DNA of 64,000 bases from positions 19,406,001-19,470,000 of the forward strand of contig OZ024762.1 of NCBI GenBank assembly GCA_964016885.1, read 5' to 3'. Below the pieces are notes generated by a model. It saw only the letters and a list, made by a program, of their open reading frames with translations. It was not told the DNA's origin and searched no databases. Each line of letters begins with the position of its first letter. Position 1 is the first letter of the stretch. Positions 486-62,164 of the stretch are shown here, piece after piece. Made by a program: the position numbers and the translations under genes. The DNA comes from Eledone cirrhosa. Its lineage: Eukaryota.

Positions 486-1628
486 ATTTACATTACTCTA
501 TATATACTATTATATTTTCATGGTAAAGGCTTTACCTCACATAAATATCTCACATAACATTCTCATTACTCTATATATACTATTATATTTTCATGGTAAA
601 GGCTTTACCTCACATAAATATCTCACATAACATTCACATTACTCTATATATACTATTGTATTTTCATGGTAAAGGCTTTACCTCACATAAATATCTCACA
701 TAACATTCAGATTACTCTATATATACTATTATATTTTCATGGTAAAGGCTTTACCTCACATAAATATCTCACATAACATTCACATTACTCTATATATACT
801 ATTATATTTTCATGGTAAAGGCTTTACCTCACATAAATATCTCACATAACATTCACATTACTCTATATATACTATTATATTTTCATGGTAAAGGCTTTAC
901 CTCACATAAATATCTCACATAACATTCACATTACTCTATATATACTATTATATTTTCATGGTAAAGGCTTTACCTCACATAAATATCTCACATAACATTC
1001 ACATTACTCTATATATACTATTATATTTTCATGGTAAAGGCTTTACCTCACATAAATATCTCACATAACATTCACATTACTCTATATATACTATTATATT
1101 TTCATGGTAAAGGCTTTACCTCACATAAATATCTCACATAACATTCACATTACTCTATATATACTATTATATTTTCATGGTAAAGGCTTTACCTCACATA
1201 AATATCTCACATAACATTCACATTACTCGATATATACTATTATATTTTCATGGTAAAGGCTTTACCTCACATAAATATCTCACATAACATTCACATTACT
1301 CTATATATACTATTATATTTTCATGGTAAAGGCTTTACCTCACATAAATATCTCACATAACATTCACATTACTCGATATATACTATTATATTTTCATGGT
1401 AAAGGCTTTACCTCACATAAATATCTCACACAACATTCACATTACTCTATATATACTATTATATTTTCATGGTAAAGGCTTTACCTCACATAAATATCTC
1501 GCATAACATTCACATTACTCTATATATACTATTATATTTTCATGGTAAAGGCTTTACCTCACATAAATATCTCACATAACATTCACATTACTCTATATAT
1601 ACTATTATATATTCATGGTAAAGGCTTT
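486..1628. repeat. 61-bp tandem array (about 18 units) derived from a MITE segment
   Basis: Unit cattcacattactctatatatactattatattttcatggtaaaggctttacctcacataaatatctcacataa repeated head to tail. Confidence 0.95.
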
Positions 1629-1962
1629 CATTCATTTCATTTTACGTCCACTTTTCCCTGCTTGCAAGGGTGGGACGGGAACTGATTCTGGCTTGATTTC
1701 TACAGCTAGATGCCCTTCCTAACACCAACCTCATTTACAGTGAGTGCTGGGTGCTTTTTTTGCCGTGGCACCACCACGACCACTTTGCAGTGGAATGATA
1801 TGGACCCCAGTCCCTATCATCTCATTTCTACAGCTGAGTAAACTGGAGCAATGTGAAATAAAGTGTCTTGCTCAAGGAAACAACACATCACCCGGTCTGA
1901 GAATTGAACTCACAACCTTTCGATTGCAAGGCCAATGCTCTAACCACTAAGCCATGTGCCTC
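1629..1962 (-). mobile_element. tRNA-derived SINE family 1 (CORE-like central domain, RTE-type tail)
   Basis: Minus strand has an A box TGGCTTAGTGG, a B box GAGTTCAATTC, a central ccttgagcaagacacttt motif and a tail ending ggacgtaaaatgaaatgaatg. Near-identical copies lie at 4251, 48347 and 53338. Confidence 0.88.
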
Positions 1963-2765
1963 ACATAATATCTCACATAACATTCACATTACTCTATATA
2001 TACTATTATATTTTCATGGTAAAGGCTTTACCTCACATAATATCTCACATAATATTCACATTACTCTATATATACTATTATATTTTCATGGTAAAGGCTT
2101 TACCTCACATAATATCTCACATAATATTCACATTACTCTATATATACTATTATATTTTCATGGTAAAGGCTTTATCTCACATAATATCTCACATAACATT
2201 CACATTACTCTATATATACTATTATATTTTCATGGTAAAGGCTTTACCTCACATAATATTCACATTACTCTATATATACTATTATATTTTCATGGTAAAG
2301 GCTTTACCTCACATAATATCTCACATAATATTCACATTACTCTATATATACTATTATATTTTCATGGTAATGGCTTTACCTCACATAATATCTCACATAA
2401 CATTCACATTACTCTATATATACTATTATATTTTCATGGTAAAGGCTTTACCTTACATAATACCTCACATAACATTTACATTACTCTATATATACTATTA
2501 TATTTTCATGGTAAAGGCTTTACCTCACATAATATCTCACATAACATTCACATTACTCTATATATACTATTATATTTTCATGGTAAAGGCTTTACCTCAC
2601 TTAAATATCTCACATAACATTCACATTACTCTATATATACTATTATATTTTCACAGTAAAGGCTTTACCTCACATAATATCTCACATAACATTCACATTA
2701 CTCTATATATACTATTGTATTTTCATGGTAAAGGCTTTACCTCACATAATATCTCACATAATATC
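1963..2765. repeat. About 60-bp tandem array (same MITE-derived unit, 1-bp shorter variant)
   Basis: The unit has cacataatatctc instead of cacataaatatctc. Confidence 0.95.
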
Positions 2766-2812
2766 GAATCTATGTGATGTTGGTATTATTTATTTTGAGA
2801 ACAATACCTTAA

Positions 2813-3033
2813 CCCTTTAGCATTCAAACCGGCCACAACCGGCTAGAATTCCCTCACCTCTTTCTGTTCAAACTGGCCGTAACTAGCCACTCATACTGAT
2901 GTTAAGGTCTTGTTTTCAAAGTTAATAATAATATCATCAAAATCTCATAGATTCGATGTGAATAATTATGTAAGGTAAAGCCTTTACTGTGAAAATACAA
3001 TAGTAGATATAGAGTAATGTGAATGTTAAAGGG
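2813..3033 (+). mobile_element. piggyBac-type MITE (about 220 bp)
   Basis: TTAA-CCCTTTAGCATT ... AATGTTAAAGGG-TTAA gives terminal inverted repeats with TTAA duplication. Paralogues at 6499, 10549, 18570 and 21685. Confidence 0.85.
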
Positions 3034-23432: not shown

Positions 23433-23653
23433 TATGCAGTCACACGCTCACACATATATATATGCACTCATACACATGTATATATACATACACACACGTA
23501 TATATAAATAAATATACACGGGTGTGTATGATTGTGTATAGAAGATTATATTAATAGAAGGAATTCCAACTTTGTCTGATTTACTCGTTTTATTTACAAT
23601 CCTTTAAAATTATAATGATATTATAATGAAATAGTATGGTAGAATATTAAATG

Positions 23654-23830
23654 TTTGTTTCTAGATTTGGCACAAGGCCAGCAATAACCCATTGTATTAC
23701 TGGTACTTATTTTATCGACCCCGAAAGGATGAAAGACAAAGTTAACCTCGGCGGGATTTGAACTCAGAATGGCAAGGACCATAACTCTATGCGTCAAAGC
23801 ATGGTGTCCAACCCTCTACCGATACTGCCA
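23654..23830 (-). mobile_element. SINE family 2 inserted in the left arm of the fold-back
   Basis: Absent from the right arm; flanked by the direct repeat aaatgtt. Confidence 0.85.
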
Positions 23831-23846
23831 AATGTTAAGTGTTAAT

Positions 23847-23885
23847 TGAACAAGTACTTTCATGCTTTCGCAATCTTCAGGGTCA
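23847..23885 (-). ncRNA. Minimal type I hammerhead (family C)
   Basis: Reverse complement tgacc-CTGAAGA-ttgcgaaagcat-GAAA-gtac-TT-gttca; one stem I mismatch. Confidence 0.7.
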
Positions 23886-24316
23886 TATTCAGTGGTGACA
23901 GTCAAGTTTGCAATTTTCAACTGTAATGAGATGGGTAAATTCTGTGTCTTATATACAGTAAAAAGGGGCTACAGAATGGGTTTTTCAACAACAACAATAA
24001 TAATAATAAAAGTGATGTTGATGATTACTGAAAATTTTTTATAAAAACCCTAGAAAATGCTATTTTCATCATTTCTAAAAATAGCAAAACAATTGATGCT
24101 TTGGATAGGGTCAAATAGAAGTCGTTAGACATGCTCAACCAACCGTGACGCCTAAATCAATCAGCTTTAGTAATCTAGTGAAACTACACACCGATTGGTC
24201 GAAATACAGTTTGCAAAACTTAGCATTCTGTAGCCCCTTTTTACTGTATATAAGGCACAGATTTTACCCATCTCATTACAGTTGAAAATTGCAAACTTGA
24301 CTGTCACCACTGAATA

Positions 24317-24355
24317 TGAACCTGAAGATTGCGAAAGCATGAAAGTACTTGTTCA
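24317..24355 (+). ncRNA. Minimal type I hammerhead (family C)
   Basis: tgaac-CTGAAGA-t-tgc-gaaa-gca-t-GAAA-gtac-TT-gttca: 5-bp stem I, GNRA-capped stem II, palindromic stem III, CUU site. Confidence 0.82.
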
Positions 24356-24647
24356 ATTAACACTTGGCATTTAATATTCTACCTTACTATTTCATTATAT
24401 CATTATAATTTTAAAGGATTGTAAATAAAACAAGTAAATCAGACAAAGTTGGAATTCCTTTTATTAATATATATATATATATATATATACACATACATAC
24501 ACACAGACACACACGCACACTTGTGTGTGTGTGTGTGTGTATACACACACACACAGACACTCACGCACACTCGTATATATATCAAAGTGAAAAGGCTTCT
24601 CCCCATTTACAAAAGGATGACTGTATGGCGCCTGTGTGCAAAGCGTG

Positions 24648-26058: not shown

Positions 26059-26176
26059 TCCAAGAAGAGTTGAAATTAATGCATGCAAAATTTCACAGCT
26101 CTGACATCACTCCTTCATCTTATAGTATAAGAGTAAAGGAACAAAGAGTCAGTGTTGCATCATAACATATTTAATA

Positions 26177-26268
26177 ACATATTACATATGTTTCACTGCC
26201 GATCAGCTCGAGGAACGATCCATTTTTGATCGAACCTGACTCTGGAATCAAAAGATCCTCAGATATGC
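26177..26268 (-). ncRNA. Type I hammerhead with a long (61-nt) stem II (family D)
   Basis: Reverse complement gcatat-CTGAGGA-[61-nt interrupted hairpin]-GAAA-catatg-TA-atatgt. Confidence 0.72.
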
Positions 26269-26299
26269 CTCAATGTGTAAGCTCGCCTCTGATACACCA

Positions 26300-34133: not shown

Positions 34134-35156
34134 AGGAATTAAACCCGTGAACTTATGATTGTGAGTTCAATACTCTAACAACTAGGCCACAAACTTTCAC
34201 AAACTATTCTTTAGTTTAAGAACAACTCTTGGGTCCCAAATAATAGGAGGGTTGGTTGGAATAAGCTGCGATGTTGGAGTAAGTGGCGCAGTTGGAAAAT
34301 TGGTAATGTTTCTAGGTTGTCTCTGTTGATTTCTTTTGAAAAACCAGAATTAGTTGTTTTGTTTACATAGTGAGACCCCCAACCCATCTTATTTATCTTA
34401 TAACATATGGGATTTCTCGTAATGTACTTTTTTGTTGTATCAAAGTTGTTGCCATTGTATGTAAGTGTGTGTGTCTGTGTATATATATATATATATGATG
34501 ATATCTAAAGAATGAAACAGTTCTAGTCCTGTAGAATCTCATCTATATTAAAACTATTTGGATTGATAATGTTTTTTGAAAAAACTAATTAACCCGCGTG
34601 AATATTATTTTTTCTTTTCTCGTGTATTGGTTGTCTCCCCTTCCTGCTTCGTGACGCTATAATACTTCCTCAGTCAAAAACTGCTGGAATTTCAAATTTG
34701 GCGGTCATTTGATGCGTGAGGGAGCAGCTTAGCAGACACGATTTTTAACTGCGGTAAGAATTTTTTCTTATATCAAAGTTTAATGGGCTTCCACTGATGA
34801 TTTATAAGTGCCCACCTAAATATATTCTTACATGAATATATGTTAGGCTTCTACATAAACTGGAAACATTCTCCTAATTTGTAGAAAACTTATAATGAAA
34901 CAATTGTTTGGAAAGAGAGATATATTTTAACTTTAATTATATCTCATAAAATAATACAACTGGCTTTCCACATAATACATATAGTTAGCACCCAAACACT
35001 TAAATTGGATTAATACTAACATATAACCTAATGTTTGTTGAGTGAGATGGTTGCCAGTCAGAGTTTAGCTTTAAGCTATCTCTGTTATTGTATTAAATAT
35101 ATATATATATATATAGTTTTAATATAGATGAGATTCTATAGGACTAGAACTGTTTC

Positions 35157-35203
35157 ATTCCTGATGATTTCTAAAGAATGAAATAGTTCTAGTCCTGTAG
35201 AAT
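35157..35203 (+). ncRNA. Type I hammerhead (family A) within a fold-back (35116-35221)
   Basis: attc-CTGATGA-t-ttc-taaa-gaa-t-GAAA-tag-ttctagtc-ctg-TA-gaat. Truncated or degenerate relatives at 34495-34554 and 55545-55650. Confidence 0.75.
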
Positions 35204-35290
35204 CTCATCTATATTAAAACTTTTATACTCTGCTATGTATTGAGTACCTTACTTACTGTGGTTACCTCTGATTCAATCCGGAATAACTTA

Positions 35291-35331
<41 letters not shown>

Positions 35332-35372
35332 ACGATATTAACAAATGGAAACTATATTTATAAAACCATATT

Positions 35373-35437
35373 TATTTCATTATACATATTTCAAGGACAC
35401 CAAGTTAAATTATGGTGTGCTTTCATCAGATAAAATA
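35373..35437 (-). ncRNA. Minimal type I hammerhead (family E)
   Basis: Reverse complement tattttat-CTGATGA-aagcacaccataatttaacttggtgtcctt-GAAA-tatgta-TA-atgaaata. Confidence 0.8.
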
Positions 35438-35631
35438 TAATATAGATCAGTTTTATAAATAAATATTGACATACCCTTAAAGAATGCAACCATTACTGTT
35501 GGAAGCTCTATGTATATGTATATATACGTGTGTGTATATATATGTGTGTGTATATAAATATATCTGTGTGTATATAAATGGAATAGAGTGAAACGAAATT
35601 TCATTTCTCACTCTTAGTACGGCACTTACTT

Positions 35632-46596: not shown

Positions 46597-48300
46597 TCAT
46601 CATCATCATCATCATCAACGTTTAACGTCCGTGTTCCACGCTTGCATGGGTTTGGACGGGGGTTTTCCCACTTGAGGCAAGAGTGATTATCTTGCTCGCA
46701 TAGGACTGTCTGGCGGGTTTTCTACAGCTGGATGCCCTTCCTAACACCAACCACATTTACAGTGTGGGGCTGGGAGGTTTTTACCGTGTTGCCTACACGG
46801 CCACATTACAGCGTGGACTGTCTGGCGGGTTTTCTACAGCTGGATGCCCTTCCTAACACCAACCACATTTACAGTGTGGGGCTGGGAGGTTTTTACCGTG
46901 TTGCCTACACGGCCACATTACAGCATGAACTGTGTGTTTTTTTGTCGTGACACCTACATGATCTCATTTGTTTCGGCCTGGATGTTGTGGCACCAACATA
47001 ACTTTACATTGAAAGGGGCGGTGTGGATGGGGTGGGGGTGGTGGGACGGGGGTGTATTTTGTTAGAGATGCCTACTGACTGTAGTAGGTTTTACTTTGTA
47101 TTTAGGTAAGGCGGGTCTTCTCTATTACTGAGTACCGCCAAAGGTCTCGGTCCAGTGACATTGTCTTGGTGAGGTGTAAGTGTGTGAGGTCGGAATTTAT
47201 CAGCTCGTCCCAGGTCTTTCTGGGTCTGCCTATTCCGTGGCTACCGTCTATCTTTATTGCCCTGCACTTTGTTATACAGCTATCGTCTTTCATGCGCATC
47301 ACGTGACCATACCAACGTAGCCTTCTCTCGAGTAAACAACATCTGATCCCTCTTATTTCTAATTTTTTCCTTAGTTCGTTTATGCTTTGCCGTTCACGTA
47401 TATTACTATTACACATCCAGCGGAGCATGCAAGCTTCGTTTCTCTCTAGTCTGCGTATATCCTCTGCACACAATGCCCAGGTCTCACTGCCATGCAACAT
47501 TGCTGTTCGTATGCAGGCATCATACAACCTGCCTTTCATTTTTAGGGAGAACCCTTTAGCGGCTAATAGTGGTATAAGCTCTCTGAACTTTTTCCATCCA
47601 GTTCTGACTCTAGCTACTGTACTTTCAGAGCACCCTCTCCCACTGCTGATTTTGTCACCCAGGTAACTGAAGCTGTCCACTATTTCTATAGAACCCTCTG
47701 CGCAGTTGAAAGAGCTAGTATTTTGTGGGCACTTGCTACTTATTGCACCAGAGCACCGGCCACATGTAAAATCTATGTTCTTAGTTAGCTTACCTGTGAT
47801 CCCACTACATCTTTTATGCACCCATACTTTGCATTTGGGACACAAAATGGAGTTTCTACCTACGCCTTTCCTACACACTGAGCATGGCCACTTCCCGGAA
47901 GGGACCGCCGCCTTATTTTCTTTCTTACAAACTAGAACTTTAGTCTTAGCCAGGTTAATTTTAAGGCCTTTTGATTCTAGGCCGTGCTTCCATGTTTGGA
48001 ATTTCTTCTCTAGCTCGGCCATTGATTCAGCTATGAGTGTTAGGTCATCTGCGTATAGGAGTTCCCATGGGCAACCGGTCTTGAACTCCTCTATTATAGC
48101 CTGAAGGGCAATAATAAATAGTAGGGGGCTGAGAACAGAGCCCTGATGGACGCCAACTTTTACGCTAAACTCTTCACTATATTTGTTGTTAATTCTAACC
48201 TTGCTGACTGTTTCTTTATACATGGCTTGTATAGCTCTCACAAGCCATTCGTCAACACCTAGTTTTCTAAGAGCCCACCAGATAATGGAACGGGGGACTC

Positions 48301-48304
<4 letters not shown>
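46597..48304 (-). mobile_element. 5'-truncated RTE-clade LINE
   Basis: RT ORF followed by a 3' UTR of about 500 bp, containing a 112-bp duplication (46704-46925) and ending gacgttaaacgtt(gat)n. The 5' break abuts (TA)n. Confidence 0.92.
47102..48304 (-). CDS. RTE non-LTR reverse transcriptase, C-terminal about 400 aa, uninterrupted
   Basis: DRVPRSIIWWALRKLGV, GVHQGSVLSPLLF, LLYADDL, YLG, RLRWYGHVMR and GRPRKTW motifs; no stop codon or frameshift; no start (truncated). Confidence 0.92.
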
Positions 48305-48346
<42 letters not shown>

Positions 48347-48645
48347 ATCACCATCATCATCATTTTACGTCCGCTTTTCCCTGCTTGCAAGGGTGGGATG
48401 GGAACTGATTCTGGCTTGATTTCTACAGCTGGATGCCCTTCCTAACACCAACCTCATTTACAGTGAGTGCTGGGTGCTTTTTTGCATTGGCACCTCCACG
48501 ACCACTTTGCAGTGGAATGATAGGGACCCCAGTCCTTATCATCTCATTTCTACAGCTGAGTAAACTGGAGCATTGTGAAATAAAGTGTCTTGCTCAAGGA
48601 AGCAACACATCACCCGGTCTGAGAATTGAACTCACAACCTTTCGA
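48347..48645 (-). mobile_element. SINE family 1, head truncated
   Basis: Near-identical to 4251-4560. Confidence 0.85.
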
Positions 48646-49112: not shown

Positions 49113-51026
49113 CATATATTAACAATCTCGCCAACAACAACCCTGAGCACCTTTTTGATCTCCATCTGTCTAACACATGTGGACATGCCCACTAAGTCAG
49201 AAAACAGCACAGCTCCCATGACTTTCGGAAACATTTTCTCACGCTTAGAGTTGCTGAAGCATGGAACAAACTACCTGCATCAGTTGTTAGCTGTTAAGAC
49301 ACTGCATCCTTTAAAACCTCCATGGAACAAACTACCTGCATCAGTTGTTAGCTGTCGAGACACTGCATCCTTTAAAACCTCCATGGAACAAACTACCTGC
49401 ATCAGTTGTTAGCTGTCAAGACACTGCATCCTTTAAAACCTCCATGGAACAAACTACCTGCATCAGTTGTTAGCTGTTAAGACACTGCATCCTTTAAAAC
49501 CTCCATGGAACAAACTACCTGCATCAGTTGTTAGCTGTCGAGACACTGCATCCTTTAAAACCTCCATCGAACAAACTACCTGCATCAGTTGTTAGCTGTC
49601 GAGACACTGCATCCTTTAAAACCTCCATCGAACAAACTACCTGCATCAGTTGTTAGCTGTTAAGACACTGCATCCTTTAAAACCTCCATGGAACAAACTA
49701 CCTGCATCAGTTGTTAGCTGTCGAGACACTGCATCCTTTAAAACCTCCATCGAACAAACTACCTGCATCAGTTGTTAGCTGTCGAGACACTGCATCCTTT
49801 AAAACCTCCATCGAACAAACTACCTGCATCAGTTGTTAGCTGTCGAGACACTGCATCCTTTAAAACCTCCATCGAACAAACTACCTGCATCAGTTGTTAG
49901 CTGTCGAGACACTGCATCCTTTAAAACCTCCATCGAACAAACTACCTGCATCAGTTGTTAGCTGTCGAGACACTGCATCCTTTAAAACCTCCATGGAACA
50001 AACTACCTGCATCAGTTGTTAGCTGTCGAGACACTGCATCCTTTAAAACCTCCATGGAACAAACTACCTGCATCAGTTGTTAGCTGTTAAGACACTGCAT
50101 CCTTTAAAACCTCCATGGAACAAACTACCTGCATCAGTTGTTAGCTGTCGAGACACTGCATCCTTTAAAACCTCCATCGAACAAACTACCTGCATCAGTT
50201 GTTAGCTGTCGAGACACTGCATCCTTTAAAACCTCCATCGAACAAACTACCTGCATCAGTTGTTAGCTGTTAAGACACTGCATCCTTTAAAACCTCCATG
50301 GAACAAACTACCTGCATCAGTTGTTAGCTGTTAAGACACTGCATCCTTTAAAACCTCCATGGAACAAACTACCTGCATCAGTTGTTAGCTGTTAAGACAC
50401 TGCATCCTTTAAAACCTCCATGGAACAAACTACCTGCATCAGTTGTTAGCTGTTAAGACACTGCATCCTTTAAAACCTCCATGGAACAAACTACCTGCAT
50501 CAGTTGTTAGCTGTTAAGACACTGCATCCTTTAAAACCTCCATGGAACAAACTACCTGCATCAGTTGTTAGCTGTTAAGACACTGCATCCTTTAAAACCT
50601 CCATGGAACAAACTACCTGCATCAGTTGTTAGCTGTTAAGACACTGCATCCTTTAAAACCTCCATGGAACAAACTACCTGCATCAGTTGTTAGCTGTCGA
50701 GACACTGCATCCTTTAAAACCTCCATGGAACAAACTACCTGCATCAGTTGTTAGCTGTTAAGACACTGCATCCTTTAAAACCTCCATGGAACAAACTACC
50801 TGCATCAGTTGTTAGCTGTCGAGACACTGCATCCTTTAAAACCCTCATGCTTGCCGAAATTCGCCAACACTACACCTGATGTACCCCTTCCATACACATG
50901 CACACATGTGTATATCATGACTCATGCACTGTTCATTTTCCTGACGTTTGTACATTACCCTATGTACTATACATGCACCTTTGATGAGTTGTAGTGCACC
51001 TGAGCACTGTACACAATATTTTTATT

Positions 51027-51041
<15 letters not shown>
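49113..51041 (+). mobile_element. CR1/L2-group LINE 3' end with an internal satellite expansion
   Basis: ...NTCGHAH*VRKQHSSHDFRKHFLTLRVAEAWNKLPASVVSCRDTASFKTLMLAEIRQHYT* is a CR1-type C-terminus, followed by a short 3' UTR and an (ATT)n tail. Confidence 0.8.
49260..50847. repeat. 61-bp tandem array (about 26 near-identical units)
   Basis: Unit catggaacaaactacctgcatcagttgttagctgtcgagacactgcatcctttaaaacctc. Confidence 0.97.
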
Positions 51042-51058
<17 letters not shown>

Positions 51059-51201
51059 TATACATACACACAGCGATTCTTTGCTTAAACTTTAATCTGT
51101 TATTTTAATATATATTTGCTCTATGGTTTTATATATTTATATATATATATATTATCCTTATCGAGACCTCTTCGGATTTTAGTCTTCACATTTATTATTA
51201 T

Positions 51202-51253
<52 letters not shown>

Positions 51254-51271
51254 ATAGCATTGTACAGATAC

Positions 51272-51309
<38 letters not shown>

Positions 51310-51813
51310 CAGAAATAGCCGTCGAAACGGCTTGAGCTCTGCCGTCGGGGTCATACTTTCTCCTATTACCTAGTCTACTACCCTAAGTATTGAGTACGCT
51401 GGTGCGTTATGGTCCATCGGGTTCCTTACCACACCTATCGGGTTCCTATGTATGTAAATGGTTGATGCACACACACACACATTTACATATGCACTCCTAT
51501 AAATGGATATAGATATATATATACAAACACACACACACACACACACACATCTACAAATGCACTCCTATAAATGGGTGTAGATATATATATACATACACAC
51601 ACACACACACTCATTTTTATATATATATATACACACACACATTTATATATATATATATATACACACATATATATATATACACACACTCATACACACAAAC
51701 ACATATATATATACACACATACATATATACATGCACATGCCCATATATAAGCAAGTGCAATACAGGAATATAGAGATTTTTCAAGTAAATGAAAATGAAG
51801 AAAATAAATAGAA

Positions 51814-51850
<37 letters not shown>

Positions 51851-52190
51851 AATAGATGAAAGCGGTAGTATATAAAAATACCTGGTAATCTCTTGAACTT
51901 TTCAATTTATAGATGAAAGAAATATTTCCATATTTCTGTTTTGGCTATCCTAGAGACAAATATAGATAAAATACTGTTAAACAGCCCTCACACACACCAT
52001 AAAACTCCTACCAACATAACACAAGAACAGGTGAAAAAATCTTTAAGGAAATTCTATTTGAAAAAACGAAAATATTTAAATGTTGATTTTTCTGTGATTT
52101 TCTCTAAAGAAATTTCAATATTTGAGAAGAAATGAATAAGAAAATAGAAGCAATGAATGAATGATATATTACAATGTATATGGAATATTA

Positions 52191-52243
<53 letters not shown>

Positions 52244-52383
52244 CACGCACACACACACGCATATATATCATCATTATCATCATTTTACGTCCCCTTATAT
52301 ACATAACCGTGTGTCTGTGTGTGTATATATATATATATAGAGAGAAAATTGATATATATATGCATACATACAAATTATGTGGG

Positions 52384-52417
<34 letters not shown>

Positions 52418-52994
52418 AACACAGAAACGAATATATATAGATGTATGTACACACACACACACACATATATATATACACACTCACACAGAAAATTAAAGGA
52501 ATTCTGAAATCTCATGGCAAATGAAAATAAGAAAAATACCTATTTAGACCTTCTTAAAATATATAAATATACCTGCGAAATTATTTTGATCTTTCAGTAA
52601 ACAAGTTAAAAGTGATAAAATTCTCCAGAGAATGGTAATAAGTTCAGTTTTTGTAACAAGGTTCTCCAGAACTAACTAAACAATCTTCTTTATATTAATG
52701 AAGTTAGTTTTTTCCTTAAATATAGGTGCAACGGTCATTGCAGTCTGTTTAACCCTTTCATTACTATATTCCAAATGAGATACATTATATTTCAATTAAT
52801 TAATTAAGAATTTGGAGAGATTTACTAAAATTATCAAGCATTTCATTATATATATATATATAATGAAATACTTGATAATTTTAGTAAATCAGGGTGACCG
52901 GCTGAAGTTGAAGGAACAGAATAGCGGTCGCCCTCGGGTCCTCGATTTTCAGCCCCATGGATTTTATCTATTAGATTCACGTATTATATTTCGA

Positions 52995-53052
52995 ATACCT
53001 GATGATATCACCGGATTCATACGGAACCCGGTCATTGAAATGATCATAGTAT
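52995..53052 (+). ncRNA. Minimal type I hammerhead (family G)
   Basis: atac-CTGATGA-tatcaccgg...ccggtcatt-GAAA-tgatca-TA-gtat; palindromic stem III, AUA site. Confidence 0.8.
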
Positions 53053-53098
53053 ATTAAACCTTTCAAGGATTTACACAAATCCAGCCTCCTGTCATTTC

Positions 53099-53159
<61 letters not shown>

Positions 53160-53197
53160 TTGCGAGGTTTTTTATATGAAATCGTGTGTTGAAACAA

Positions 53198-53332
53198 ATA
53201 TTGTTATACTTGGGGAGGGTCATATTTGTGTAATATTGCCAGAAAAGCGAAAACCAACCAAACAGTGTGTGTGTTCTGTTATTAATTCTGGCAATATTAC
53301 ACAAATATGACCCTCCCCAAGTATAACAATAT
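53198..53332. repeat. Perfect inverted repeat (about 47-bp arms)
   Basis: atattgttatacttggggagggtcatatttgtgtaatattgccagaa and its reverse complement, about 40 bp apart. Confidence 0.85.
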
Positions 53333-53337
53333 ATATA

Positions 53338-53621
53338 TCATCATTTCATCATCATTTCATTTTACATCCGCTTTCTCCCTGCTTGCAAGGGTGGGACGGG
53401 AACTGATTCTGGCTTGATTTCTACAGCTGGATGCCCTTCCTAACACCAACCTCATTTACAGTGAGTGCTGGGTGCTTTTTTGCCGTGGCACCTCCACGAC
53501 CACTTTGCAGTGGAATGATAGGGACCGCAGTCCCTATCATCTCATTTCTACAGCTGAGTAAACTGGAGCAATGTGAAATAAAGTGTCTTGCTCAAGGAAA
53601 CAACACATCACCCGGTCTGAG
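53338..53621 (-). mobile_element. SINE family 1, head missing
   Basis: Near-identical to the other copies. Confidence 0.85.
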
Positions 53622-53889
53622 ATATATATATATATATATATTTAGATATATATATTTAGATATATATATTTAGATATATATATTTAGATATATATATTAT
53701 AGAGTAAAATGACATGAGGTCGGAGAGGTTAAAGTCTGTTCCCGCACCACCAACAGGATTCAACATCAAAGATGGAGGAGTTATGTAACGTGCAGTGCTT
53801 TTCTACTATTACATAATGGTTAACATTGTGGAATGACCAATTCTACCCAGTGGTGAACCACTAAACTTGAATGAATATATATATATATA

Positions 53890-54112
53890 TAAATAGGAAA
53901 AGAGTCAGGACCCCAACGGCAGAGCTCCGGCCATTTCGACAGCTAGATCCAAACTCTACTACCCTAAGTATTGAGTACTCTGGTGTGTTATGGTCCACCT
54001 GGTATCTTACCACACTTTCTTTGTTTTTTATATATATATAATGAAGGAGGTGTGGTAAGGAACCAGATGGACCATAACGCACCAGAGTACTCAATACTTA
54101 GGGTAGTAGAGT
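53890..54112. mobile_element. Rearranged fold-back of family H (half-hammerhead element)
   Basis: Inverted arms 53953-54021/54044-54112; homologous to 51310-51445 and 57765-57970. Confidence 0.65.
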
Positions 54113-54294
54113 GGGGAATTGGAAAATGTTTAACCAGAGCTAGTCATAACAGGTCTGGTATGGAAAGGGCTTAAAAGAAACCCTTTACCTTTCTGGGCAC
54201 TCTAGGTACATTATGTTGCCAACAGAGTAATTTCCCCTTAATACATAATGCAGTGTCAAGGGAAACAATTCATGAAAAAATTCAGCGTGCTAAA

Positions 54295-54566
54295 GATTAA
54301 TAACACCAGAGCTAGTTATAGCAGGTCTGGTATGGAAAGAGCTTAAAAGAAACCCCTTTAATAAAACCAGAAGGAGTTATGGTAGGTCTGGTATGAAAAG
54401 GGACTGAAAAGGAACCCTTTAATAAAACCAGAACCAGTTATGGCAAGTCTGGTATGGAAAGGGACTGAAAAGGAACCTTTTAATAAAACCAGAGCCAGTT
54501 ATGGCAGGTCTGGTATGGAAAGGGCTTAGAAGAAACCCTTTAATAAAACCAGAGGTAGTTATGGCT
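54295..54566. repeat. About 61-bp tandem repeat (4-5 units)
   Basis: Recurring taataaaaccagagccagttatggcaggtctggtatggaaagggc. Confidence 0.85.
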
Positions 54567-56030
54567 GAGTAAGTATCAAAAGGCTTAAGGTTATTGCAAT
54601 GAAATTTCACTATTGCTGCGTCTAATCAATTTACTTATATTGTGCAGCGATAAATGAGTGTCTCGTTAATTTGGCAGCTGTAATTAGTTGTAAGCGAAAG
54701 ATCACATTCATTTCTATTAAGCTGTCCCTTCATTTGCCACCTGTCCCTTTCTCGCATTTCATAAATTATATTTAATAATTATACTAGAATCACTCTCTTT
54801 CACTCATATGTGTGTGTATATATATATATATATATATGTATATATGTTTGTTGGTATAAATATGTATATATGTATGTATATATGTATATATATATATATA
54901 TGTATGTTTGTTGGTATAAAAATATTTATATATATATATGTTTGTTGGTATAAATATGTGTATATGTATATATATATATGGATGCATATGTATATATATA
55001 TGGATGTATATATGTATATATATATATATATGTATATGTATGTAGATGTATATATGTATATGTATGTAGATGTATATGTATATATATATGTATATATGTA
55101 TATATATATATGTATGTATATGTATGTATGTATATATGTATATATATATGTATGTATATATGTATATATATATGTATGTATATATGTATATATATGTATA
55201 TATATATGTATATATATGTATATATATATGTATATATATGTATATATATATGTATGTATATATATATATATATGTATATGTATATGTATGTATATATATA
55301 TGTATGTATGTATATATATATATATATATTACTATTATTATTTCTCACTCATATTTCTATTTAATTTAGATGTCAGATATAATTTTAAAGTAGGTTTTAG
55401 GTTTCACTGATGATGATGATGGCGATGGTGATAATGGCGGTGATAGTGATTATGTTAGTGTTGATGGTGATGATTGTGCCGATGGTGTGGTTGATGAAGA
55501 TTAGACGGTCATATATTTGGGCCAATAAAGACATTGAGTTCTCTATAGATATATTAGAACTAGGACTGTTTCATCCAAAAGAAATTGTCAGGAAATACCT
55601 TTTTGAATGAAACAGTTCTAGTCCAGTAGAAGCCATTTCTATATTAAATATGATATTTACACTCTACTAATGTATTGAGTACCTTACTGTGGTTACTCCC
55701 AATTGAACCCGTGGTGCACACACACACACACACACACACTACCACACCACACCACACCACACCACACCACACCACACCACACCACACCACACCACACCAC
55801 ACCACACCACCTCCACACCACACCACACCACACACCTCCACACCACACCACACCACACCACACCCCCACCCCCCACACCTCCACACACGCCACCACCGCT
55901 TTATATATATATATATATTTATAGTGGTAGAACACTGGAAGGTAGTAGTAGAGCACTTTGTAGTGGTAGAGCACTCAGTCCATGGGACGAGTTAGGTAGA
56001 AGTGGTTACACAACAGTTAGTTCACCATAC

Positions 56031-56068
56031 CGAGAAGAATTGTTTCACCTTAGTGGATCCTCAGCTCG
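56031..56068 (-). ncRNA. Minimal type I hammerhead (family I)
   Basis: Reverse complement cgag-CTGAGGA-tccactaaggt-GAAA-caattc-TT-ctcg; stem III mismatch. Confidence 0.65.
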
Positions 56069-56129
56069 CAATGGACATGGTTATATGGAACAGGAAGGAC
56101 AACCCTGTTCCGTATAACCATGTCCATTA

Positions 56130-56167
56130 CGAGCTGAAGATCCGCTAAGGTGAAACAATTGTTCTTG
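56130..56167 (+). ncRNA. Minimal type I hammerhead (family I)
   Basis: cgag-CTGAAGA-tccgctaaggt-GAAA-caattg-TT-cttg; palindromic stem III, GUU site. Confidence 0.75.
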
Positions 56168-56275
56168 GTATGGTGAACTAACTGTTGTGTAACCACTTAT
56201 ATATAGATATATGTCCCAAGGCTCTGATACCATCAACACTATAAACACAGAGCTGGCATATCTAAGAACTGTCTA

Positions 56276-56331
56276 ACTGCCTGATGAGGTCATAGCCATT
56301 CAATGGCTATCATCGAAATATATATAGTAGT
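56276..56331 (+). ncRNA. Minimal type I hammerhead (family J)
   Basis: actgc-CTGATGA-ggtcatagccattcaatggctatcatc-GAAA-tatata-TA-gtagt; canonical G10.1-C11.1, long stem II. Confidence 0.82.
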
Positions 56332-56376
56332 AAATAAAGGATTATGAGTTCATGCAATTGACTTATTTTTCGTCAC

Positions 56377-56442
<66 letters not shown>

Positions 56443-56797
56443 AACACACACATGCATGTACATATATATATATACACCTACATACAGTATATCAATGTGT
56501 ATGTGGGTGTGAAAGAAATGGATATATAATTAATATATGAAGAAGTTTTATGGGTTTTCATGAAAGGACAATTAGACATTGTGACATTGTAGGTTTCTTT
56601 ACCAAAAAAGAAACATGGATTTAAGTGAAGCAGCAAATCTTGACTAATTTCATATATATGTGTGGTGTATGTATAGTGTGTGTTGTGTATGTGTGTGTAT
56701 GTAGTTGTATGTGTGTAGATGTAGTCGTGTGTGTGTAGGTGTGTGGTGTGTGTGTGTGTGTAGGTGTGTATTTGTTTGTATTTATATATTTATACAT

Positions 56798-56884
<87 letters not shown>

Positions 56885-57426
56885 TAAATATACACACACA
56901 CACACATATATATATATATACATACACAGACACACACATATATTCCATAACATATATAAGTGACTATAGCGTCAAAATGGGAAAATAGTTAACAAAATAT
57001 ATATAGGGATTTTAGTTATCAAATTTTAATTGGCGAAATATAAAATTAAGTGATATATGCAGTGTTGACAAGTAAGGAAAAACTTACGCAGCTGGACTGG
57101 ATAATTGTTGTAAATTGTTCGAGGTATAAGAGTTGATTATTGATTAAAATTTGATTCTACGAAAATAATGAGTTTTATGAAAGATTTGCTTTAACACTTC
57201 TGATGCCAAATTACATGGAAGTTCCCTTATCTTTTTGTGTGATGGGCTGAGAATCACTAGTTTGTGGGTTCAAGTCTTGCCGAGGGAGAGCAAGTGAGAG
57301 AGAGAGACAGAGACAGAGAGAGAAAGAAAAATGAAGTGAAATGATAGTATCATCTCTCTCTCTCTCTCGAGAGAGAGAGGTTATATTTAATTTATTGGGA
57401 TTTATTTATAAAACTAACATATATTA

Positions 57427-57492
57427 TATTTTATCTGATGAAAGCGCACCATAGTTTGCCTTGGTGGCCCTTGAAATATGTATAATGAAATA
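57427..57492 (+). ncRNA. Minimal type I hammerhead (family E)
   Basis: tattttat-CTGATGA-aagcgcaccatagtttgccttggtggccctt-GAAA-tatgta-TA-atgaaata. Confidence 0.8.
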
Positions 57493-57530
57493 AATATGGT
57501 TTTATAAATATAGTTTCCATTTGTTAATAT

Positions 57531-57579
<49 letters not shown>

Positions 57580-58026
57580 ACTAGAAATAGATTGACACAT
57601 ATATATATAAAATAAACACATGAAACACACAATCTATTTCTAGTTGATATAAAATGCTCGGAACTATTCTTTGAGCTTATTCTGCAGTGAATATGGCGCA
57701 TGTCTCTCAGACATGACAACCTTACCTTAATTTAATTTTGGATATATATATATATATATATATAACGAAGGAAATGTGGTAAGGAACCAGGTGGACCATA
57801 ACGCACCAAAGTTCTCAATACTTAGGGTAGTAGAGTGGGTAATAGGAACGAGTAGGACCCCGACGGCTGAGCTCAAGCCGTTTCAACGGCTAATTCTGGA
57901 CTAAAATATTTTAGTCCAGAATTAGCCGTCGAAACAGCTTGAGCTCAGCCGTCGGGGTCCTACTCGTTCCTATATATATATATATAGTATAAGAATAAGG
58001 TAATAAAGAATCAGTGTTGCATCATA

Positions 58027-58118
58027 ACATATTACATATGTTTCACTGTCGATCAGCTCGAAGGACGATCTATTATTGATCGAACCTGACTCTTGAATCG
58101 AAAAACCCTCAGATATGC
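58027..58118 (-). ncRNA. Long-stem-II hammerhead (family D), core variant CTGAGGG
   Basis: Homologous to 26177-26268 but with A9 changed to G. Confidence 0.55.
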
Positions 58119-58173
58119 GTCAGTATATAAGCTCACCTCTGATGTATCATCAGAGGCGAGCTTACATAGAGAA

Positions 58174-58265
58174 GCATATCTGAGGGTTTTTCGATTCCAG
58201 CGCCAGGTTTGATCAATAATAGATCGTCCTTCGAGCTGATCGACAGTGAAACATATGTAATATGT
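58174..58265 (+). ncRNA. Long-stem-II hammerhead (family D), core variant CTGAGGG
   Basis: gcatat-CTGAGGG-...-GAAA-catatg-TA-atatgt. Confidence 0.55.
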
Positions 58266-59022
58266 TATGATGCAACACTGATTCTTTGTTACCTTATTCT
58301 TATACTATATATATATATATATATATATAGGAACGAGCAGGCCCCCGACGGCTGAGCTCAAGCCGTTTCGACGGCTAATTCTGGACTAAAATATTTTAGT
58401 CCAGAATTAGCTGTCGAAATGGCTTGAGCTCAGCCGTCGGGGTCCTACTCGTTCCTATTACCCACTCTACTACCCTAAGTATTGAGAACTTTGGTGCGTT
58501 ATGGTCCACCTGGTTCCTTACCACATTTCCTTCGTTATATATATATATATATATATCCAAAATTAAATTAAGGTAAGGTTGTCATGTCTGAGAGACATGC
58601 GCCATATTTATATAAATATGAGACTAAACGTGCTGCGTAGTTGCAAATGGGTTACATATGAATAAAGTTAGTCCTTCATCAGTGATCATTGGTATTTCAT
58701 CGCTTTAAAGACCATATACCTCCGGTTGGTGCGAGCAACGGCTAAAAAAAGTCGTTGGGACATGTAAATAAAGGGGACACGAGAGTGTAAACAAACAAAG
58801 ATGGTGAAGCAACGAAAAGTGAGGAAGAAAGAGTTAAGTCCCAAATTTCCATGAATATAAGTTCGGTGAAATCGTGAATGAGAGAGAGAATAAAGACCAT
58901 CAAACCTGGTTGGAATGTGAGCAAGTACAGGTCTAACGGGAGGAAGAAGGAATCTAGTCTGTGAATTCGGTGAACATAAGTTCTGTGAAATCGTAGATGA
59001 GAGAGAGAGAGAAAATGCGAAC

Positions 59023-59070
<48 letters not shown>

Positions 59071-59613
59071 AAATTAATTCGAAAATTGAGATAGACATGA
59101 TAACTTGTATGATAAAATCATCAATAATATTTATACATGCACAATTTTTAATCTATATAGATACTTATATACTTACAACCTGTTGTAATGTAATAAGATA
59201 AAATGTACTTACAACCATAATTCTTCATATAATCTAATTGATTATATATACAATATTATAACTCATAATATAGCTAAACAATTTTTTTAAAATTCTAGAA
59301 TCATATTCCACCATTCCTACAAAATGTTAATTCTTTTTAAATTAACGTAAATACAAGCTCTTCTTTCTTTCTCTTTCTTCTTCCTACACATACATATATC
59401 CTAATAATTATTTAAATCTGCCTAGCATCTACAAATAACGTTTTTTTTTTTTTCAGTCCTATACCTCAACCTCATTTGCATACTCATCTTAATAATTTGA
59501 AATATTTGACTTTTATTTTCTTCTCTTTCCCGTCTTTCCTTTACTATCCAGGAAAAACTTGAACCATTAAGATCTCCTTCCTGGTTATGTCAATATTTAT
59601 GAAACAAACTTTG

Positions 59614-59674
59614 TATTTTATCTGATGAGAGCATACCAAAATTTTGGTACCCTTGAAATGTATATAATAGAATA
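59614..59674 (+). ncRNA. Minimal type I hammerhead (family E)
   Basis: tattttat-CTGATGA-gagcataccaaaattttggtaccctt-GAAA-tgtata-TA-atagaata. Confidence 0.78.
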
Positions 59675-59797
59675 AATATGGTTTTATAAATATAGTTTCC
59701 ATTTATTTAATATCATTGAATATTATACTCGAGTGCTTCCAATTAGTTATAAACATTTATATTTGTTGAATTACCAACAAATTAAATATCCCTTTTG

Positions 59798-59847
<50 letters not shown>

Positions 59848-59878
59848 CAAATGGAAACTATATTTATAAAACCATATT

Positions 59879-59944
59879 TATTTCATTATACATATTTCGG
59901 GGATACCATATTAAAAATATGGCATGCCTTCTTCAGATAAAATA
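59879..59944 (-). ncRNA. Minimal type I hammerhead (family E), left arm of palindrome 59846-60159
   Basis: Exact reverse complement of 60061-60126. Confidence 0.72.
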
Positions 59945-60060
59945 CAATATATAAGCAGTTTTATAAATAATTTTGACGTACCATAAATATTGATCAACAC
60001 ATGAAAGTTGATCAATATTTATGGTACATCAAAATTATTTATAAAACTGCTTATATATTG

Positions 60061-60126
60061 TATTTTATCTGAAGAAGGCATGCCATATTTTTAATATGGT
60101 ATCCCCGAAATATGTATAATGAAATA
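60061..60126 (+). ncRNA. Minimal type I hammerhead (family E), right arm of palindrome 59846-60159
   Basis: tattttat-CTGAAGA-aggcatgccatatttttaatatggtatcccc-GAAA-tatgta-TA-atgaaata. Confidence 0.72.
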
Positions 60127-60166
60127 AATATGGTTTTATAAATATAGTTTCCATTTGTTTAATATC

Positions 60167-60231
<65 letters not shown>

Positions 60232-60269
60232 ATATTAACAAATGGAAACTATATTTATAAAAGCATATT

Positions 60270-60335
60270 TATTTTATTATACATATTTCAAGGGCCACCA
60301 AGTCAAATTATGGTGCGCTTTCATCAGATAAAATA
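60270..60335 (-). ncRNA. Minimal type I hammerhead (family E), left arm of fold-back 60237-60558
   Basis: Reverse complement tattttat-CTGATGA-aagcgcaccataatttgacttggtggccctt-GAAA-tatgta-TA-ataaaata; perfect 8-bp stem I. Confidence 0.82.
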
Positions 60336-60459
60336 CAATACAGATTAGTTTTATAAATAAATATTGACATACCCTGAAAAAAAGACAACCTTAACGGTTG
60401 GAGCTTCCTGGATAGTCAATATTTATGTCAATATTTATTTATAAAACTAATCTGTATTG

Positions 60460-60525
60460 TATTTTATCTGATTAAAGCGCACCATAATTTACCTTGGTGG
60501 CCCTTGAAATATGTATAATAAAATA
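60460..60525 (+). ncRNA. Hammerhead (family E) with core mutation CTGATTA, probably inactive
   Basis: Mirror of 60270-60335 with G8 changed to T. Confidence 0.55.
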
Positions 60526-60556
60526 AATATGGTTTTATAAATATAGTTTCCATTTG

Positions 60557-60713
60557 TTGTGGTTGGTGTTAGGAAGGGCATCCAGCCATTGAAAACCCGC
60601 CAGACAGTCCTATGCGAGCAAGACAACCACTCTTGCCTCAAGTGGGAAAACTCCCGTCCAAACCCATGCAAGCGTGGAATATGGATGTTAAACGATGATG
60701 ATGATGATGATGA
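60557..60713 (+). mobile_element. RTE LINE 3' tail fragment
   Basis: Reverse complement match to 46597-46755; ends in (gat)n. Confidence 0.85.
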
Positions 60714-60848
60714 TTGTATATTTACTCCAATAACTTGTTGAGTGCTTTATATCAGTTAAAAAAATATTTTTAAGCTTGTTGTATCCCAACAAATTCAATA
60801 TAACCTTTGCATATATATATATATATAATTTAATTATGTTCATACCCG

Positions 60849-61040
60849 GAACAAAAGCACTTCCTAAGGCTTCAAGGCCCAAATTTGACTATATCTCCAA
60901 AATACAAGCGGCATCGATTTTTGTGACATTTCTTCAGGCACTTATACAAGTTGAGAAGAAAAGTCATTATTTTGATGCCTCTTGTGTTCTGGAGATATAG
61001 TCAAATTTGAGCCTGGAATGTTGAGTAGCGCCTTTGTTCC
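60849..61040. repeat. Imperfect palindrome, MITE-like
   Basis: caaatttgactatatctcca / tggagatatagtcaaatttg core arms, with ggaacaaa / tttgttcc outer ends. Confidence 0.6.
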
Positions 61041-62164
61041 TTCTATGAATATAAATACATAATATAACAATTCTGTTCTCTTCCCGAATGAACACTGTTT
61101 TCTGTTTCCTTTTCACACCTACAGATATTGTTACATACATACATACACACACAAACACACACACATACACACACACACACTCACACACATACATACACAC
61201 ACAGAGAAAGAGAGTAAAAGAAAAACAAAAAAGGGAGAGCAAGGAAAGCCAGAAAGAGACAGGTAAATAGATCAATACATACACATATATATATATGGAG
61301 AGAGAGAGAGAGTGAGAGATTGAGTGGGAGAGATAGAGATAGAGAGAGTGAGAGAGCAACAAAAACATCTGCATTCTTTGGTTAAGTGAAATGGAAGTTG
61401 TCAACACAGCTTTAACATTACATTTTCTACATTTGGCAGCTGAATTGATGTGTGGCTGTCTACAGCTCTTATATAACCATACACACTCTCACATATATAA
61501 TATACACACATACACTACAGAAGCTCTTAAGTACTCCAAGCTATATAGCAATGGAATTTCAATATGTTGGAATTGTGTATGGCTTTTTTTGAAAGGTGTA
61601 AGTAATTTGTCTGGACACTTCACTAAAAACATTGCTTGATGGTTCTTGATGAAATTTTAATATCTTGGTTGGTGCTTCCATCAAGAATGGTTTATTTCTC
61701 CCTCTTTGAATATGGCGTAGTGTTTTTCTTCTTATTTTGTTCTTTTTTTTTAAAAGAACATGCTTTTTATTGTGTCTGCACATATAGGTTTATGTGTGTG
61801 TGTGTATATATTTGTGCATGTATATATCTCTATATCTATGTGGGTGTGTTTATATATGTGTGTGTGTGTTTGTGTTAATTTTATTTGTATGGCATATATA
61901 TATATATGTGTGTATATACGTATATATGTGTATATATATATATATATATATGTGTATATATGTGTGTGTATATATGTATGTGTATGTGTGTATATATATG
62001 TGTGTATATATGTGTATGTGTGTGTGTATGTGTATGTGTGTGTATATATATATGTGTGTATATATATATATATATGTGTGTATATATATATGTGTATATA
62101 TATATATATGTGTGTGTATATATATATGTGTATATGTGTGTGTATATATGTGTATGTGTGTATA

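Follow-up and report, generated by a model that had tools for sequence, protein, structure and literature searches.

A nested palindrome of repeat stubs in Eledone cirrhosa, likely Penelope-like in origin and likely extended by fold-back copying

The 919-nt palindrome at 57690-58608 of the window (the whole 64,000-nt stretch of DNA analysed here) is a composite whose arms run in the order A, (TA)n, B, H, (TA)n, D and draw on three repeat families. It is probably a stack of stubs joined at (TA)n tracts, the stubs being likely fragments of non-autonomous Penelope-like pseudo-LTRs, in which the D pair at the axis likely seeded a fold-back copy of ∼390 nt of the left arm. By analogy with published systems, the locus would behave as an insertion stack of Penelope-like elements (PLEs) combined with a foldback duplication, and the whole stretch is probably an ordinary by-product in a palindrome-rich region. 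Its parts are as follows.

57578-57741, plus strand: stub of family Y; its last 52 nt (57690-57741, segment A) form the outermost part of the left arm
57742-57764, unstranded: (TA)n tract of 23 nt at the tail-to-tail junction of Y and H
57765-57907, minus strand: H1+B, long copy of family H; hammerhead 3′ half GAAAC...GUC, then the 80-nt B extension; 5′-truncated in the presumed stem II
57908-57970, plus strand: H2, short H copy, head-to-head with H1; ends in CCTA-(TA)n, an end common to many family copies
57971-57986, unstranded: (TA)n tract of 16 nt
57987-58144, minus strand: D1, stub of family D with putative type I hammerhead topology; CTGAGGG at 58112-58106, GAAA at 58044, would-be cleavage after 58033
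58145-58147, unstranded: 3-nt loop TAT, the main axis
58148-58305, plus strand: D2, head-to-head partner of D1; core CTGAGGG at 58180-58186
58306-58329, unstranded: (TA)n tract of 24 nt
58330-58535, unstranded: H3 (minus, short) and H4+B′ (plus, long), the inverted copy of the left H pair
58536-58556, unstranded: (TA)n tract of 21 nt
58557-58608, minus strand: A′, exact 52-nt copy of the Y 3′ end and outer end of the presumed duplicated tract
58609-58700, minus strand: right junction, outside the palindrome; (TA)3 at 58609-58614, then segment X

Alignment of the left arm with the reverse-complemented right arm placed them at 57690-58144 and 58148-58608 around the TAT loop, in agreement with the fold-back with a 3-nt loop described in the first-pass annotation. 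The H palindrome of ∼130 bp that it had placed in each arm was also recovered (57844-57970 and 58330-58456, 97% and 94% complementary). Between the arms we counted 16 substitutions at 418 non-(TA)n positions, together with two (TA)n tracts of unequal length (the outer one 23 nt on the left and 21 nt on the right, the inner one 16 and 24 nt). The outermost ∼150 bp had been reported as identical save for TA length, and this holds over the outer 190 nt (57690-57879), where substitutions are absent. By segment, the arms differ at 0/52 positions in A (57690-57741), 0/80 in B (57764-57843), 6/127 in H (57844-57970; four of the six being CpG transitions), 1/96 in outer D (57986-58081) and 9/63 in inner D (58082-58144).

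The proposed clustering of mismatches near the axis was thus correct for inner D, which holds 9 of the 16 differences, but another six lie in H and the divergence pattern is a step, not a gradient. Inner D stands apart from the remainder (9/63 vs 7/355; post-hoc Fisher p=1e-4), and finding nine substitutions in one 63-nt window is improbable under uniform scatter (p=0.005; p=0.004 for the seven non-CpG changes). Per-window arm identity, which the annotation had named as a check, was accordingly non-uniform: a one-step model was favored over a uniform rate (Bayes factor 31 with all sites, 66 with non-CpG sites only). The step is best placed at 58081-58088, the 90% sets also taking in positions in B or H; the D cleavage site, 58033, lies outside those sets and was rejected as a tract boundary. 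Without the CpG transitions, H is not significantly more divergent than A, B and outer D (p=0.29). The innermost 9 nt beside the axis are matched between the arms. Homogeneous distal arms around an inverted repeat that was there beforehand, as seen here, are a feature of foldback duplication. No target-site duplication was found at the outer ends, 57690 and 58608; such duplications are optional in Penelope-like elements.

To place the segments in families, we used public data on 57578-58215, consisting of one RAD run and three contig sets, the latter all from the same sample, with 57719-57775 skipped. Summed contig depths, which are not copy numbers and served solely to call each segment repeated, were 1.7-3.6 million at 57776-57885 (H/B), 40-113 thousand at 57578-57709 (Y) and 8-72 thousand at 57996-58105 (D). 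They were 510-630 at 58106-58127, 45-60 at 58128-58149 (the axis) and 120-236 at 58150-58193; most single contigs among those listed had a depth of 5-15. Every arm segment compared with other copies is repetitive. The 'unique flank' and two families of the first-pass annotation therefore give way to three families, B recurring in the window at 54040-54119, 54025-53953 and 51433-51365 and A being the 3′ end of family Y. In the copy at 51308-51435, B directly follows the H half, and H and B together are one element. A 20-nt B motif gave no matches in metagenome, genome and viral contig collections.

The assignment of A to Y follows from the depth, continuous across 57690, and from the family letter at 57690 itself, present in 78-91 contigs per run and in 255/324 RAD reads; these indicate a third family that runs on leftward and has A as its 3′ end. 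A single listed contig crosses 57690, with 29 letters on the right side against a bridge threshold of 31. Since Y is long on the left and only 52 nt on the right, the left arm is likely the original and A′ its copy. Segment X was rejected as the natural continuation of A because A continues left in the family, and an nhmmer extension of Y into X looked like a weak overrun. X itself (58615-58700, minus strand) carries CTGATGA and a stem, without GAAA, has one copy in the window and ends in an 18-nt palindrome spanning the right junction. At the Y 5′ end (57575-57650) lies a 22-bp perfect stem with a 35-nt loop, either a native stem II or a small fold-back.

Each H palindrome consists of two truncated H copies head-to-head, H1 and H4 extending through B and H2 and H3 stopping at CCTA-(TA)n. 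The loose end behind 57986, which is this CCTA-(TA)n end of short H, was found in 3586 RAD reads. The same type of junction occurs in public contigs: in 15/15 listed joints (238 in all) a B/H piece in antisense is followed by an H piece in sense, and the H axis is crossed by one 107-nt contig that carries 8 other letters and reaches ∼50 nt to either side. Head-to-head H pairs are therefore not peculiar to this locus. On their outer sides, the D pair and both H pairs adjoin (TA)n.

An artefact of assembly or base calling, either a right arm produced by a fold-back chimera or a real palindrome with consensus errors close to its tip that imitate an older core, is improbable. It would fit the public data on 57578-58215, where no listed read or contig spans the main axis; 10 public runs, with no RNA run among those listed, share words with the locus, the best reaching 0.42-0.47 of words. 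It would also fit the inner D differences, 5/9 of which are transversions, and the lowered nanopore accuracy at inverted duplicates described in the accessible text of PMC7229812. An assembly error is unlikely, however, because 6/16 arm differences are CpG transitions, while CpG positions are 46/418 (p 1e-5 to 5e-3 under uniform error). Other observations also speak against it: there are private changes on both arms, both (TA)n tracts are unequal in length, the mirror ends at 58608 with the sequence running on into unrelated X, the two zero-spacer H axes lack tip errors, and public contigs contain head-to-head H junctions like these. The records listed for 57578-58215 include no loose end on the right flank. 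The locus is present in the assembly as described and probably exists in the genome as well.

The distribution of differences among copies suggested the sequence in which the parts arose. Each of the six H differences is found in just one of the four half-arms, which are thus star-like, so the H pair was presumably still perfect when duplicated; as the half-arms share no change, the fold-back copy would have been made at or soon after H insertion. A D paralog at 26124-26293 allowed the same comparison in D. Against it, the arms share 9 letters in outer D and differ from each other at 1; the corresponding figures for inner D are 5 and 9. Shared D-arm letters at 58001, 58062, 58064, 58104 and 58106 are rare in the family among the rows listed. 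In inner D the left and right arms are about as far from each other (9/63) as either is from the paralog (10/63, 11/63), so that inner divergence fits an older core or a second D template alike.

That second template is the basis of an unlikely, if credible, alternative: one retrotransposition-type event with two templates, in which the right arm was copied from the left composite (by reverse transcription or from DNA) up to a template jump, after which another D-family RNA served for the last ∼63 nt. On this view the inner mismatches would reflect a subfamily difference, not age. Consistent with this, besides the similar inner distances, other contigs match each of the two inner versions at ≥85% (summed depths 510-630 at 58106-58127 and 120-236 at 58150-58193), and read-through self-priming with template jumps is proposed in the accessible text of PMC3846280. 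But the inner arms share an A at 58104 and a C at 58106, absent from most family contigs and reads, and the copy lies right next to its source, where a DNA fold-back would place it with no extra assumptions.

We therefore prefer a DNA fold-back seeded by the D pair. Before duplication, the order would have been Y-(TA)n-H pair-(TA)n-D1|D2-(TA)n-X. Penelope-like enzymes acting in trans would first have put Y, the D pair and the H pair into AT-rich targets, each head-to-head pair as one unit, via self-priming or both-strand priming. A nick or break on the right would then have let a 3′ end within D2 anneal to D1 and prime synthesis. This would have run ∼390 nt outward, through outer D, the H pair, B and 52 nt of Y, and then switched back to its first template at the (TA)3 beside X; the inner 63 nt of D2 would have escaped copying. 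Since then the arms appear to have undergone CpG decay and slippage of (TA)n; the pattern is seen in them and its cause is presumed. At the return junction, where microhomology may occur, A′ ends in ATATT beside (TA)3, in AT-rich sequence that makes a chance overlap likely. The proposal of the first-pass annotation, a central fold-back seeding a later inverted duplication or conversion, thus gains from the step, the star-like H half-arms and the 52-nt Y copy, but its reading of the inner divergence as age need not hold. The neighbouring DNA captured is repeat DNA rather than unique.

Comparing the masked window with itself, we found many local inverted repeats. Eight other inverted pairs were aligned, of which five carry CUGANGA...GAAA motifs head-to-head, with arms 0.7-7% apart (55997-56201, 59846-60159, 60237-60558, 23552-24466 and 35115-35221); three of the five pass the custom stem test described below. 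Between 53953 and 60558, inverted pairs cover 1920 of 6606 nt. Head-to-head pairs are routine in this window and correspond to the published insertion pattern of Penelope-like elements, a point that the first-pass annotation had overlooked.

Several of these neighbours have features of their own. The pair at 23552-24466 is a second span of ∼915 nt, with head-to-head CTGAAGA motifs at 23880(-) and 24322(+), a 246-nt spacer and arms ∼3% apart; its left arm is broken at 23654-23829 by an insert that is presumably SINE-like. The segment 59540-60558 holds one hammerhead-bearing family in alternating orientation, the pairs 59846-60159 (1 mismatch in 153) and 60237-60558 lying tail-to-tail across (TA)n. 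Further copies of that family, at 57400-57525 and 35293-35464, have intact CTGATGA cores and an 8-bp stem I. An H-family cluster of three pieces occupies 53899-54135.

Mismatches in the head-to-head pairs showed no strong inner bias (inner/outer halves 4/3, 1/0, 2/2, 2/3 and 1/2, 2/0). The tail-to-tail H pair at 53953-54112 had 7 inner and 1 outer mismatches, so axis-side clustering is not special to 57690-58608. These comparisons bear on a very improbable alternative, a single whole-arm duplication followed by local mutagenesis or by selective survival of tip changes that stabilise the palindrome. Central interruptions stabilise palindromes; both arms do have rare letters in common within the inner zone, and the tail-to-tail pair offers a parallel in its inner bias. 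Against it stand the five head-to-head pairs, the clean H axes and the matched innermost 9 nt.

The first-pass annotation had attributed the arms to ribozyme-element families. Rfam gave 0 matches at gathering score over the whole window, and at E≤10 over 50500-61500 it gave 149 matches with no hammerhead family, the sub-threshold models being of hairpin type only. Motifs were located with a custom hammerhead descriptor used with no shuffle control, whose matches include likely chance ones (4638, 21950, 34673 and 34794). By this descriptor, the D arms carry a stem I of 6-7 bp, a core, GAAAC-ATAT-GUA, a 3-bp stem III and a UH cleavage site. The D stem II region spans 61 nt with 0 closing pairs next to the core, and the minimum-energy fold of D2 (z -0.92) has GAAAC paired with the bases that follow the core. 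The D core is CTGAGGG in both palindrome arms and CTGAGGA in the paralog at 26262, which by the same descriptor has stems I and III; the CTGAGGA letter at the matching position, 58106, makes up 92-97% of contig depth and was found in 278/279 RAD reads.

As modelled, D has type I hammerhead topology with a mutated core. A hammerhead in each arm, as first annotated, thus stands for topology but not for the core, which is CUGAGGG in place of the family's CUGAGGA. Of the features of an active type I hammerhead, the D arms lack the CUGANGA core and a stem II closed next to it. H keeps the hammerhead 3′ half alone (GAAAC, stem III and GUC), and CTGANGA was found within 80 nt upstream of 0/8 H-family matches in the window. 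Y, read by eye, has a decayed 3′ half of a hammerhead-like motif and no CUGANGA. The label of ribozyme-element families was accordingly not borne out. Halved in H and Y and core-mutated in D, the hammerhead motifs appear to be passengers, and in any RNA crossing the axis they are predicted to be buried in the arm-to-arm duplex.

A more active role for stem II was also considered. The loose ends behind 57905 (in 39-47 contigs per run) have a consensus, with agreement of 0.56-0.60, that reads as a short AT-rich loop followed by TTTTAG, complementary to the preceding bases; from this complementarity, seen by eye in a weak consensus, the H axis appears to lie in the loop of the family's native stem II. 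Hammerhead stem II might then be the self-priming site of Penelope-like stubs, nascent cDNA snapping back there to give a perfect palindrome. Snap-back pairs would seed further fold-backs that swallow neighbouring stubs, in a genome-wide ratchet. We regard this as doubtful, since 4/5 other head-to-head pairs have axes upstream of the core. If true, the ratchet would supply long perfect duplex templates that could explain unusually high host dsRNA and A-to-I hyper-editing, and it would give PLE hammerheads a cleavage-independent role at the DNA level.

Comparison with published Penelope-like elements supported the preferred reading, a PLE insertion stack extended by a foldback duplication. The accessible text of PMC3846280 describes inverted pLTRs with palindromes at head-to-head junctions, attributed to self-priming, as well as AT-rich targets and unrelated DNA captured between pLTRs. 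That of PMC8557442 describes an inverted 5′-truncated copy beside the 5′ end, with a tail of 30-40 nt on one side and (TA)n targets. The locus resembles these endonuclease-bearing elements, as described there, in its head-to-head inverted 5′-truncated copies with palindromic junctions, its AT-rich or (TA)n targets with captured neighbouring DNA, its one arm longer at the 3′ end (H1 and H4 against short H2 and H3) and, here in D only, a type I hammerhead with a minimal stem III. It departs from them in that the H1/H4 extension is 80 nt rather than the 30-40 nt of the published tail. It also departs from a Penelope-like insertion unit in having no ORF, three nested families, no target-site duplication at 57690/58608 and a second-order duplication that mirrors two whole units.

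Other sources, in the parts accessible, are in keeping with such an origin. PLE protein nicks and extends both strands of AT-rich DNA, PLE reverse transcription starts at internal sites, and hammerhead cleavage is dispensable in vitro (PMC11167929). Octopus is among the hosts of Naiad elements, which are without canonical hammerheads (PMC8557442), and recently active Penelope-like families are reported in Octopus vulgaris in a main text that, as far as accessible, is without hammerheads or palindromes (PMC13282606). Dispersed minimal type I hammerheads are tied to PLE pseudo-LTRs (PMC7761336), and tandem retrozymes are derived from PLEs (bioRxiv 10.64898/2026.07.22.740005). According to the open portions of the latter two, D resembles such hammerheads in its stem I of 6-7 bp, core, GAAAC-loop-GUA and 3-bp stem III, and the stubs resemble them in being dispersed and in high copy; unlike them, D has a CUGAGGG core and a 61-nt stem II without a closing pair, and H and Y keep the 3′ half only. 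Metazoan non-LTR retrozymes, as portrayed there, are tandem head-to-tail whereas the copies here are inverted; a non-LTR retrozyme was rejected on this ground and because the cores are incomplete.

The window's coding content was sampled by scanning 25 of 260 ORFs. Among these, the sole reverse transcriptase found was a 420-aa frame at 47102-48364 (minus strand; Pfam RVT_1 1.8e-17, then a PHD-like finger at 6e-6), which we take to be RTE-like, another LINE. The D paralog at 26124-26293 adjoins the apparent 3′ end of a LINE resembling it. The same 25/260 ORFs contained no GIY-YIG, no autonomous Penelope-like ORF tied to H, D or Y and no host exon, and Pfam gave no match on ORFs overlapping the palindrome or its flanks. 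Since no reverse transcriptase with a GIY-YIG partner was found among the ORFs scanned, PLE membership of H, D and Y rests on architecture.

The second half of the reading, foldback duplication, also has published counterparts: foldback priming at inverted repeats (PMC10622511) and foldback inverted duplication or template-switch inversions (PMC10766186). With these, in their accessible text, the locus shares a central inverted repeat, near-identical distal arms and an abrupt end at a short AT-rich junction; unlike them, it is sub-kilobase, interstitial and seeded by retroelement stubs, and is known from sequence alone. A MITE or palindromic non-autonomous DNA transposon would likewise be a hairpin over its whole length in an AT-rich setting. 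A MITE was rejected, because target-site duplications are absent, the window contains no second copy of the whole unit and depth is low at the axis (45-60, vs thousands to millions in the arms); the arms, moreover, are composites of separately repeated stubs. No prior description of such a locus type in octopus was found in the mainly open literature covered.

The ∼450 bp of dsRNA foreseen in the first-pass annotation stands as a prediction, 441 arm-to-arm pairs being modelled. On general grounds (PMC5625713, in its accessible text), RNA crossing the axis would be an ADAR or Dicer substrate. That the locus is itself a selected hairpin-RNA locus, giving small RNAs against H, D or Y or serving as an editing substrate, is extremely unlikely. 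The predicted duplex, the great abundance of the H family and the editing of palindromic and Penelope repeats in other animals (described in the same source) agree with it, but only length distinguishes the locus from the other pairs, its changes accumulate as CpG decay and slippage, and neither a host exon (25/260 ORFs) nor an Rfam match at gathering score was found. Such palindromes may feed the high long-dsRNA load reported for octopus in the accessible part of PMC5625713.

The single locus matters little: it is longer and nested, but its pattern recurs at least eight times elsewhere in these 64 kb. Its use lies in a readable order of events, pairs first and fold-back extension later, and in pointing to where head-to-head junctions fall relative to hammerhead stem II genome-wide, self-priming having been proposed in the accessible text of the papers cited. 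Elsewhere in the window, 555-3028 is made up of 72-73 nt units in tandem, one of which, at 2956-3028, is inverted.
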